Source: an uncultured Clostridia bacterium (lineage in GTDB: Bacteria > Bacillota > Clostridia > TANB77 > CAG-508). Taken from it: a stretch of 64,000 nt of DNA. The notes under the pieces were generated by a model. It was given only the letters and a program-made list of their open reading frames with translations. It made no database searches and was not told the origin of the DNA. The stretch's first letter is position 1. The number at the start of each line of letters is the position of its first letter. Both the position numbers and the translations under genes were made by a program. The stretch covers positions 48,221-112,220 of the forward strand of contig CALYAA010000001.1 of assembly GCA_944393385.1 (NCBI GenBank). Reading direction: 5' to 3'. Below are positions 61,765 to 64,000 of the stretch, in pieces.

Positions 61765-62604
61765 ATGGAAAATGCAACAAAAGCTTTGTTAATAGCAGCT
61801 GGTATGTTAATTGCATTAATCATATTATCATCACTTTTACTTCTATTTAATATGGTTTCTGATTTTTATCAGAATAGTAGTAATATGACAGAAGAACAAC
61901 AAAGAATTGAATTTAATAAGCAATTTGAAAATTATGAAAATAAAGAAATACGTGGTAATGAATTACTTTCTATTATGAATAAAATAGATGACTATAATTC
62001 AATGGAAATAGAATATGGATATTCATCTATGTCATTTGTAGTGGATTTTAAAAGTACAGAATTATTTAAACAATTTAATTATGAAAGTGTAAATGATAGT
62101 AGTACATATCTTTTGAGTGGATCAAATACTAAAATTACAGAAAACAAATTAAAAGATTTTTCTAATAGAGTAAATGATCCTTCAACAGGTCTTATAGGTT
62201 CTTTACAATCTGTTAGCGGATCAGTAAAAGTAACAGAAACTCTTTTACAACAATTATCTTCTAATATAGCCAATATAATGGTTGAAGAATCTAATAGTGG
62301 TGCAACAAATGATTATGATATAAATAATAGAAATGATGCAAGAAGAAAAAGAGCAAAATTATTAGAAAATATATTTGGTGTAAATATTTGTAATGATGAT
62401 AAAGTAACATATATTACAGATTCTAAATATGTAAAAATGGTTGATACAATTAAAGATGTTACTTTAAAATATTATGAATTTACTCAATTTAAAAGAGCTC
62501 ATTTTCTATGTACTGGATTAGAATATGATTCTGTTACAGGTAGAGTTAATGAAATGAGTTTTGAACTTTGCACTGATGATAATGGAAATGTTGTTATTAA
62601 CTAG
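61765..62604 (+). CDS. Pilin-like protein, paralog 1 (conserved MENATKALLIAAG N-terminus plus a hydrophobic helix)
   Basis: N-terminal 25 aa nearly identical to the next two ORFs at both protein and DNA level. Confidence 0.6.
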   Translation: MENATKALLIAAGMLIALIILSSLLLLFNMVSDFYQNSSNMTEEQQRIEFNKQFENYENKEIRGNELLSIMNKIDDYNSMEIEYGYSSMSFVVDFKSTELFKQFNYESVNDSSTYLLSGSNTKITENKLKDFSNRVNDPSTGLIGSLQSVSGSVKVTETLLQQLSSNIANIMVEESNSGATNDYDINNRNDARRKRAKLLENIFGVNICNDDKVTYITDSKYVKMVDTIKDVTLKYYEFTQFKRAHFLCTGLEYDSVTGRVNEMSFELCTDDNGNVVIN

Positions 62605-62621
62605 TTGCGAAAGGAGTATAA

Positions 62622-63128
62622 ATGGAAAATGCAACCAAAGCCTTGCTTATCTCAGCTGGCATATTAATTGGAATAATTATTTTATCTATTGCAGTATATC
62701 TATATGGTGGAATAAGTTCTTATATGAGTAGAACTCAAGATGAAATGGAAAGTAATGCAATTTATAAATTTAATACTCAATTTTTAAATTATCAAACAGA
62801 AGGTGATGAAGAACTTTCATTTCAAGATATTGTTACAGTTGCAAATATAGCCTATGACAATAATTTTGAAGGTGGTTTAATTGAAGAAGGTTATGTAGGT
62901 GATGGAAATTCAAATTATGTTCAAGTTGATATTAAAGGCTATGTAAATCCTAATTCTAAAGAAGAAGTTAATGCTTTATATGAAAACTTTGAAAGAGTTG
63001 TTGGAGATTCAGTACTTATGGCAGAATGGCTTGAATATAACTATAGTTTTAAATATAAATGTAATACAATTGAAATTAGTCCAACATCCAAAAGAGTATA
63101 TAAGATTATATTTGAAAAAATTGGTTAA
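62622..63128 (+). CDS. Pilin-like protein, paralog 2
   Basis: MENATKALLISAGILIGIIILS; 168 aa. Confidence 0.6.
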   Translation: MENATKALLISAGILIGIIILSIAVYLYGGISSYMSRTQDEMESNAIYKFNTQFLNYQTEGDEELSFQDIVTVANIAYDNNFEGGLIEEGYVGDGNSNYVQVDIKGYVNPNSKEEVNALYENFERVVGDSVLMAEWLEYNYSFKYKCNTIEISPTSKRVYKIIFEKIG

Positions 63129-63185
63129 TAAAAATTTTAAATAAATATTGCGAACAAAATATAATAATGCTATAATGAGGAAGAT

Positions 63186-63611
63186 ATGAAAAAAATAATA
63201 ATAATTTTGTTAGTTTTTATAATTGTTTTATGTATTTTACTTTATAATTTTAATTCAATAGCTTTAGATAAGCAAAAAATTTCTGAAGAGAACGCAGAAT
63301 TTGAACTATATCTTAATAAGGAAATTTATGGTATTGACATTGCTTCTATAATAAATAAAGCTGTTGATAAAAATATAAAAAATGAAATTCAAAAAGATGA
63401 TAAAGACTTTTTTATACAAAATGATGAAAATTCAATAGAAATAGAAGTTTACCTTACAGAAGGTGATGATATTTATAAGATGGAGCAAATCTATAAACAG
63501 GGAACAGAGCAATTTGTACAATTTTTTATAGATGCAAAATTTAAATCTTCTAAAGTTGAATATCATGAAAAAACTGGAAGAATAAAATATATTCTATTTG
63601 AACAAATTTAA
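63186..63611 (+). CDS. Small secreted or membrane-anchored protein
   Basis: N-terminal hydrophobic helix MKKIIIILLVFIIVLCILL; 141 aa. Confidence 0.5.
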   Translation: MKKIIIILLVFIIVLCILLYNFNSIALDKQKISEENAEFELYLNKEIYGIDIASIINKAVDKNIKNEIQKDDKDFFIQNDENSIEIEVYLTEGDDIYKMEQIYKQGTEQFVQFFIDAKFKSSKVEYHEKTGRIKYILFEQI

Positions 63612-63693
63612 TTAGTTATTATAATTCAATATATTTTTATATTGATTTTAAATAAATTTTAATATAAAAAATCGGAAAGGATGTGTATATTTT

Positions 63694-64000
63694 ATGGAAA
63701 ATGCAACCAAAGCACTTTTAATTGCAGCAGCTGTATTAATTGTAATTATTATTATATCATTAGGAGTTTATGTTGTAGGAATGGGAAATGACCAAATGCA
63801 ACAAGGTGAACAAGCTTTATCTGATTTGGAAATAAGTAGTTTCAATGCTACATATGAAAATTATGCTGGATCATCTGTTGCTGGTTCAAGAGTTAATTCA
63901 CTTTTAAAAACAGTATTTAACCATAATTTGACAGAATCAGATGAAACAAGAAAAATTACTGTTGATGGAGATGTTTCATTATCTGCTGATGCAGAACAAC
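63694..64000 (+). CDS. Pilin-like protein, paralog 3 (3' end beyond the window)
   Basis: ATG at 63694 gives MENATKALLIAAAVLIVIIIISLGVYVVG; the frame stays open to the end of the window. Confidence 0.55.
   Translation, partial: MENATKALLIAAAVLIVIIIISLGVYVVGMGNDQMQQGEQALSDLEISSFNATYENYAGSSVAGSRVNSLLKTVFNHNLTESDETRKITVDGDVSLSADAEQ

Follow-up and report, generated by a model that had tools for sequence, protein, structure and literature searches.

Near the end of a 64,000 nt stretch of DNA from an uncultured Clostridia bacterium (contig CALYAA010000001.1; the whole stretch is referred to below as the window) lie three genes whose products share an almost identical N-terminus. The question they raise is whether such proteins can be the subunits of a type IV filament and, if so, how their N-termini are treated during assembly. 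On the evidence given below, the three genes (P279, P168 and P134), together with three others of the same locus (P141, P232 and P178), most probably encode the subunits of a type IV filament, built by a very divergent and undescribed Tad-like (type IVc-like) machine with a wide distribution in Bacillota.

Three Genes with a Common Start

The three open reading frames (Table 1) share the start MENATKALLI[AS]A, which leads into a stretch of about 21 hydrophobic residues. They encode 279 aa, 168 aa and, in the case of the third, which starts at 63694 and is cut by the window end, 102 codons; overlapping metagenome contigs complete this gene and give a protein of 134 aa (contig L001). A degenerate 29 nt pattern of the shared start occurs at three sites, exactly those of the three genes, compared with 0.00 expected from 100 shuffles, and the near-identical start followed by a hydrophobic helix, as described in the original prediction, is confirmed. 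At the DNA level, identity between gene pairs is 76% over nucleotides 1-70 and 33-47% further in, with a random expectation of 32%. Conservation had been predicted to include the ribosome-binding site context as well, and in this respect the claim fails, as the 20 nt upstream of the genes are just 20-35% identical and have a Shine-Dalgarno motif alone in common. Codons 2-8 vary synonymously while the amino acids stay constant (GAA/GAG, AAT/AAC, all four Ala codons and four Leu codons, across 303 orthologs and paralogs), so the conservation of the gene starts reflects a constraint on the protein. With synonymous sites free to vary, an RNA element or gene conversion is ruled out as its cause.

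Beyond the helix, the three sequences had been taken to be unrelated, and this is refuted by hhalign comparisons of ortholog-family profiles from which the first 32 residues had been removed. P279 still matches P168 (E = 7e-12) and P134 (E = 5e-10), and P168 matches P134 (E = 8e-13) over 97 columns that make up the whole head. The same comparisons bring in a fourth paralog, P141, which matches P279 at 5e-16, P168 at 1e-14 (104 columns) and P134 at 2e-8, and which is kept in 78 loci. The three MENA-type genes are therefore real paralogs, but they are not contiguous as had been supposed, since P141 sits between the second and the third. The homology covers the amphipathic extension of the helix, which bears the common motif F-N-x-x-[FY]-x-x-Y...G..V, and extends to the whole head in three of the four paralogs.

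The Pilin-Like Gene Set and Its Probable Major Subunit

In all, the pilin-like set comprises six genes, P279, P168, P141 and P134 in the window (P134 in part) and P232 and P178 past its end. P232 is related to the others via its N-terminal 45 residues only, and P178 represents a separate family (hhalign). Each paralog has one N-terminal transmembrane (TM) helix, bordered by acidic residues on its outer side. The AlphaFold2 model of P134 (pLDDT, the predicted local distance difference test score, of 85.7) consists of a helix of 54 residues (2-55) and a small alpha/beta head with a four-stranded beta-sheet; a helix of about 50 residues at the N-terminus is a hallmark of pilins.

P134 is probably the major subunit, because it is the shortest of the MENA-type proteins, is the paralog that best matches the first pilin gene of related plasmid modules (E = 4e-16, hhalign; see later), occurs as tandem duplicates or triplicates in about 12 of 80 loci, and is bordered by the longest intergenic spacers of the locus. 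Major pilin genes are often duplicated. Within the P134 family the first 15 residues are invariant. P279 is a candidate minor or tip subunit, and P168 a candidate minor subunit.

Two features of the DNA and protein sequences in this region are recorded here. A candidate promoter, sigma-70-like and near consensus (TTGCGA, 17 nt, TG-n-TATAAT), is found at 63148-63176, just upstream of P141; in this 25% GC DNA a scan for promoters and terminators found 107, compared with 115 expected from shuffled sequence, and gave no support for a separate P134 transcript. Residues N3-A4-[T/S]5 form an N-x-S/T sequon (codons 3-5 at 61771-61779, 62628-62636 and 63700-63708), which is invariant in the P134 family (94/94), recurs as NAS in the homologs of T. 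composti and Paenibacillus polymyxa, and may be a helix N-cap, a recognition site or a site of modification.

Family Size and Searches for Known Relatives

When 1.84 billion representatives were searched with the P134-family profile, 5,968 clusters (50% identity) were returned at E <= 1e-3, 2,319 at <= 1e-10 and 95 at <= 1e-30. The 142 newly returned representatives among the top 150 all align from residue 1 and begin with MENA[TSVA]KAL (one has MEDA and one MENV). The six paralogs and 150 family members, scanned singly, gave no match to Flp_Fap, TadE (PF07811), N_methyl, ComG, Class_IIIsignal, the archaeal Pilin_N or any further pilin model; the Pfam and NCBIfam scans returned sub-threshold noise, namely DUF515 (18.6 bits, cut-off 29), DUF4320 in 3 of the 150, Spore_III_AF and FliL. 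Nothing in the PDB matched the P134-family profile below E = 0.2. At the profile level (hhalign), the paralogs gave E >= 0.048 against six TadE/TadG-family proteins, E > 0.07 against the Flp pilin, and E > 0.008 against a DUF4320 protein and the 'KKGG/LSQLL' pilins of a C. botulinum plasmid (here and below, a slash within a signal marks the cleavage site). The N-methylation motif G/F(T/S)LxE is not present in any paralog sequence, and none of the six has a lipobox Cys or a C-terminal LPXTG. A literature search on the MENATKAL motif, the plasmid module and links to pXO16-type conjugation found no description of the system. Neither the 150 members, the profiles nor the motif checks point to the TadE/TadF or ComG Pfam models, or to a lipoprotein or sortase-substrate family, which were the assignments that the original prediction had named as fatal to it.

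Probable Machinery Encoded Upstream

The likeness to pilins and pseudopilins on which the original prediction was built is supported by the P134 model and by the genes directly upstream of P279, which encode a CpaB-like SAF protein, ParA-like proteins, a CpaF-like ATPase and a putative TadB/C platform (Table 1). The ATPase matches the TadA family (TIGR03819) at E = 9e-11, compared with 2.5e-4 for the ComGA model of NCBIfam, and scores 24.4 bits with Pfam T2SSE, just under the cut-off of 24.9. Its closest solved relatives are the CpaF structures 8rkd and 9e24 (E = 1e-7). A homology search from the ATPase gave near-identical sequences only; its identity to the ATPases of the plasmid modules is 36-57%, but only about 25% to canonical CpaF. 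The secretion ATPase of a type IV filament is as a rule a soluble protein. The N-terminal TM helix seen here (MINILLIFLVFIIGALLILYY) is kept in the gut lineage and in the homologs of Butyrivibrio proteoclasticus, Lysinibacillus sphaericus and P. polymyxa.

The putative platform had no Pfam (including T2SSF), NCBIfam or PDB sequence match, even when 38 members were scanned singly, and a Foldseek search of the PDB was empty. Its relationships emerged from hhalign comparisons with a profile of 194 sequences. Residues 351-683 align with a TadC-position protein of C. botulinum (E = 7e-7, 320 columns), and a TadB/C profile matches residues 67-261 (E = 7e-5); the C-terminal unit also aligns with the TadC-position protein of Thermoanaerobacterium (E = 3e-5), and the N-terminal unit with an annotated T2SS-F (type II secretion system F) protein (E = 6e-4). 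These alignments to TadB- and TadC-position proteins are colinear. The AlphaFold2 model is all-alpha and has two units of 'TM, helix bundle, TM' (pLDDT 84.8; pTM, the predicted template modeling score, 0.77), and some homologs are named 'GspF domain-containing' in UniRef. The 691 aa protein is probably a TadB-TadC fusion. A comparison of its N-terminal and C-terminal halves gave no significant internal repeat (E = 0.054 and 0.43).

The first gene of the locus encodes a protein that matches Pfam SAF (26.1 bits, cut-off 21) and TIGR03177, pilus_cpaB (E = 4.5e-4). Its position is kept in all 67 loci that reach it, and the plasmid orthologs are annotated 'SAF domain-containing protein'. The second gene has no Pfam or NCBIfam match, and its position is kept in 66 loci and in every plasmid module. 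The product of the third had no match in a PDB sequence search, and its counterpart in T. composti bears the annotation 'chromosome partitioning protein ParA'.

The last gene of the locus (L001 12936-14735, about 2.9 kb past the window end) encodes a 599 aa polytopic membrane protein that has no Pfam, NCBIfam or PDB match. The gene differs between species in presence and size (about 430-1240 aa), and it is a matter of speculation that the product is a pilin-modifying enzyme, e.g., a GT-C-like glycosyltransferase.

Table 1. Genes of the locus and their positions in the window; L001 is the contig on which the third MENA-type gene is complete.
Gene	Position	Strand	Description
CpaB/RcpC-like	54989..56095	+	First gene of locus; N-terminal TM helix and SAF domain
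Second gene	56173..56859	+	TadZ position; read as ParA-like from position and neighboring paralog only
Third gene	56872..57729	+	ParA-like, TadZ position; weak Pfam CbiA (MinD/ParA) match, E = 0.034
ATPase	57736..59637	+	TadA/CpaF-like secretion ATPase, 633 aa; Walker A GEQGCGKT; N-terminal TM helix
Platform	59665..61740	+	Putative platform of the inner membrane (691 aa) with 8 TM helices predicted; probable TadB-TadC fusion
P279	61765..62604	+	MENATKALLIAAG-type pilin-like paralog; ~195 extra C-terminal residues; no Pfam/NCBIfam family
P168	62622..63128	+	MENATKALLISAG-type pilin-like paralog
P141	63186..63611	+	141 aa; N-terminus MKKIIIILLVF..., a plain MKK and hydrophobic signal-anchor replacing MENATKAL
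P134	63694..64000 (full gene L001 11073-11477)	+	MENATKALLIAAA-type paralog, 134 aa in full
P232	beyond window end		232 aa, begins MENATQALELGFG...; hydrophobic N-terminal helix
P178	beyond window end		178 aa, begins MEDTPISIIGIF...; hydrophobic N-terminal helix

Distribution of the Locus

The gene order of the locus (SAF, two ParA-like genes, ATPase, platform and pilin-like genes) is constant across 80 species of uncultured gut Clostridia, where the copies are chromosomal and vertically inherited, and an equivalent module is carried on plasmids of Paenibacillus, Lysinibacillus, Clostridium and Butyrivibrio. Carriers that can be cultivated include P. polymyxa M1, L. sphaericus, Alkalihalophilus pseudofirmus OF4 and B. 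proteoclasticus B316. Directly downstream of the chromosomal locus is spoIVB (L001 15002-16213), an adjacency kept in most of the 80 related genomes. It could be taken to mean that the products of the pilin-like genes have nothing to do with the Tad-like operon beside them, being membrane or sporulation proteins, lipoproteins or sortase substrates, and the Spore_III_AF match to the TM region (E = 0.3) could be read in the same way. That match, however, is far under the cut-off and confined to the TM helix, lipobox and LPXTG motifs are lacking as noted above, and the genes are strictly linked to those for the ATPase and platform, both on chromosomes and on unrelated plasmids without spoIVB. This explanation is extremely improbable and is effectively refuted. 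The adjacency to spoIVB looks instead like inherited synteny, because the plasmid copies do not have that neighbor, and a role in sporulation was set aside for the same reason.

The genes that come after the plasmid modules were also recorded (L087 16006-19761, L095 13331-15794, L096 14338-15755, L097 13575-15740 and L099 1-14037). On Bacillales plasmids they encode a protein with an SLH (or stalk) domain and a giant protein with DUF5704. T. composti has, in addition, genes for GGDEF and HD proteins and for a 2,391 aa FN3 protein after the module, and C. argentinense has a downstream GGDEF gene. This suggests a link with surface adhesion controlled by cyclic di-GMP.

A more serious alternative to filament subunits is that the proteins do not polymerize, and are bitopic parts of a Tad-like complex that spans the envelope and serves secretion or transfer (compare PilN/PilO, GspL/M or a short pseudopilus), with the common N-terminus acting as a membrane anchor and docking motif. 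The lack of a fold match to solved pilins weighs against a filament and is in keeping with such a complex, as are the membrane anchor of the ATPase itself and the setting of the plasmid copies, which are on replicons typed by mating-pair formation (MPF) class as MPF_T or MPF_F and lie beside cell-wall hydrolases. Yet the genes that follow the plasmid modules (SLH, DUF5704, FN3 and GGDEF) belong to an adhesion or biofilm context and are not relaxase or coupling genes, and the locus in gut Clostridia is chromosomal and passed on vertically. Six helix-plus-head proteins, one of them of a short, duplicated and abundant type, also conform to the pattern of major and minor pilins, and the long N-terminal helix of the P134 model is a further point for polymerization. 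The alternative of a non-polymerizing complex is considered improbable.

The N-Terminal Signal and the Question of Cleavage

If the proteins are filament subunits, the MENATKAL segment could either be removed as a leader or be kept in the mature protein. Across the four MENA-type paralog groups (n = 303), residue frequencies are 100% for M1, 90-100% for E2 (otherwise Asp), 100% for N3, 70-100% for A4, 97-100% for A7 and 94-100% for L8, while position 6 is Lys in 82-99% and, in the P232 group, Asp or Glu in 91%. At the sequence level this matches the class III pattern of a 7-residue leader, Ala7, a charged residue 6, Leu8 and about 21 hydrophobic residues. In type IV prepilins the -1 residue must always be G, A or S; for archaeal prepilin peptidases a charged -2 residue is critical, Glu+5 is optional in archaea, and the FlaFind-predicted sites of characterized archaeal pilins include RA/QI, RA/VS and DA/VS (PMC4371748). 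The sites KA/LL and, in the P232 group, EA/LK or DA/LK fit these archaeal rules (Ala at -1, charged -2). An acidic residue at +5 is lacking, as a cut after Ala7 would place Ala or Gly there, and the sole near-invariant acidic residue is Glu2.

The absence of a Gly cleavage site and of Glu+5 had been interpreted as a new class of signal, or as processing by a different peptidase. This goes too far, given that Ala7 and the charged residue 6 agree with the published rules (PMC4371748), and no new type of signal is required because the MENATKAL start fits the archaeal-type class III rule. Since that rule fits, and since a descent of Tad systems from Epd-like pili of archaea has been proposed (PMC6668835), cutting at KA/L by an ordinary A24 peptidase is plausible. 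The gene for a prepilin peptidase often lies outside the pilus locus, and one peptidase may serve several systems (PMC6668835). There is about an even chance that the proteins are cleaved after Ala7 by an A24 prepilin peptidase whose gene lies in another part of the genome.

Several observations count against cleavage. No A24 peptidase was detected in the window, within about ±10 kb of each of 86 chromosomal loci, or in 7 plasmid modules, the last of which usually carry complete systems; the search (a regular expression for the catalytic GxGDxK, and phmmer with the CpaA peptidase) covered 1.8 Mb, made up of the window, these loci and the modules. Conservation is highest in residues 1-8 of the proteins, a segment of fixed length (303/303), and this pattern is typical of mature pilin N-termini and not of leaders. 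In addition, the hydrophobic stretch is not preceded by a small residue in every case, as two distant plasmid homologs have Lys or Thr at -1 (KK/I and RT/V).

These observations favor leaderless subunits within the same kind of filament, which would keep MENATKAL in the mature protein and need no prepilin peptidase. The invariant Glu2, near the free N-terminus, would then take the charge-neutralizing role of the classical pilin Glu5, and the plasmid homologs, too, often have an acidic second or third residue; they start with MSTNASKAL, MNNASSAL, MGENARKAL, MDSVTKAI, MESPVVKAI, MDSPVVKKI or MGGSLSEGLRTV. The near-constant Ala7 and the charged position 6 are just what class III rules demand, however, and a peptidase shared with another system may lie elsewhere in the genome. 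To our knowledge, every characterized type IV filament processes its pilins. Leaderless subunits are consequently judged rather unlikely, and slightly more doubtful still is an unrecognized Bacillota clade of type IV filaments with leaderless pilins, a native Met-Glu-Asn N-terminus and no prepilin peptidase. On balance, the evidence leans slightly towards cleavage.

Comparison with Known Systems

Among known systems, the closest parallels are with Tad/Flp (type IVc) pili, such as Cpa of Caulobacter and Tad of Aggregatibacter and Bifidobacterium breve. The ATPase has its nearest solved relative in the CpaF/TadA clade, a CpaB/RcpC-like SAF gene comes first and is followed by ParA-like genes in the TadZ position, the platform aligns with TadB- and TadC-position proteins, several pilin-like genes lie downstream, and there is no secretin, as in other single-membrane bacteria. 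The differences are also considerable. The ATPase is distant from canonical CpaF (the identity of about 25% given above) and has an N-terminal TM helix, the platform is a single, probably fused 691 aa protein without a T2SSF Pfam match, and the candidate major subunit has 134 aa and a globular head, whereas Flp pilins are headless and 50-70 aa long. The G/XXXXEY motif, homology to Flp or TadE, and a TadV peptidase at the locus are all lacking.

A second group of relatives is found on clostridial plasmids, in the Tad-like loci of C. botulinum p1_CDC51232 and of Thermoanaerobacterium pMU3262, the latter with DUF4320. These too are from Firmicutes and have a CpaB/RcpC gene and an ATPase of the type II secretion/type IV pilus (T2SS/T4P) family, and their TadB/TadC-position membrane proteins are the best profile matches to the 691 aa platform. 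In contrast, their pilins are short (57-77 aa) with a canonical Gly-Gly site ('KKGG/LSQLL'), the MENA family has no profile similarity to these pilins or to DUF4320 (E > 0.008), and their ATPases share about 25% identity with the one described here.

Archaeal type IV pilins and archaellins (the substrates of PibD, FlaK and EppA, and Epd pili) resemble the MENA-type proteins in their short leader, Ala at -1, charged -2 residue, dispensable Glu+5 and a head domain behind the helix (PMC4371748). The proteins described here, however, are bacterial (Bacillota) and match neither Class_IIIsignal nor Pilin_N, with DUF515 remaining sub-threshold; their predicted head is alpha/beta and not an Ig-like sandwich, and their cleavage is a prediction only. 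The ComG pseudopilus and Gram-positive type IVa pili likewise have a major and several minor subunits, each with an N-terminal helix and small head, and their peptidase (ComC/PilD) may be encoded elsewhere. They differ from the present locus in its lack of an N_methyl or G/FTLxE motif and of an ATPase of the ComGA/PilB clade, and the accessory genes are unlike. The locus belongs to a distinct and undescribed Tad-like clade of Bacillota, with a probably fused platform, a TM-anchored ATPase, a candidate major subunit that carries a head, Ala at -1 without Glu+5, and no local peptidase.

Other Genes in the Neighborhood

Upstream of the pilus locus, at 53389-53589 on the - strand, is a gene for a small acid-soluble spore protein of the alpha/beta type, and the host organism is a spore-former. 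A type III CRISPR-Cas-like effector module occupies 40287-53115, and its genes encode a STAND NTPase with TPR, a MYG1-like exonuclease, a CARF (Csm6-type) protein, a Cas10 palm-domain protein and three large RAMP-domain proteins. After obg, and outside the conserved pilus synteny, a gene for a TraG/VirD4-type coupling protein (777 aa; L001 20273-20507) begins about 6 kb past the pilus locus, which suggests a nearby integrated conjugative element.

Proposed Assembly and Significance

In the proposed mechanism, each protein would insert into the membrane as a bitopic protein, anchored by its single N-terminal hydrophobic helix with the N-terminus in the cytoplasm and the C-terminus outside. The conserved N-terminal segment would be the assembly helix, with MENA-x-K-A/L as a class III-type signal. 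A hexamer of the membrane-anchored CpaF-like ATPase, working through the TadB/C-like platform, would lift subunits from the bilayer so that their N-terminal helices stack into the filament core and the variable heads are exposed. P134 would be the major subunit of the filament, and P279, P168, P141, P232 and P178 would be minor, priming or tip subunits. The likely role of such a filament is adhesion or colonization.

Searches that use the Flp, TadE, T2SSF and A24 models would miss this system, as its pilins, platform and most accessory proteins match no curated family, even though the pilin family is large (about 6,000 clusters at 50% identity). Fixation of the locus in a whole lineage of small-genome, never-cultured Clostridia from human and animal guts makes it a prime candidate for attachment to the host, to mucus or to partner cells. 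With the module also present in cultivable hosts, the question of whether pilins with Ala at -1 and without Glu+5 are cleaved can be tested directly. If the pilins are truly leaderless, they would be an exception to the rule that an A24 peptidase processes every type IV pilin, and the peptidase-independent 'MENA-x-K-A-L' N-terminus would be a new kind of assembly signal. Either outcome would widen the rules of prepilin recognition in bacteria, and would bear on the proposed archaeal origin of Tad.

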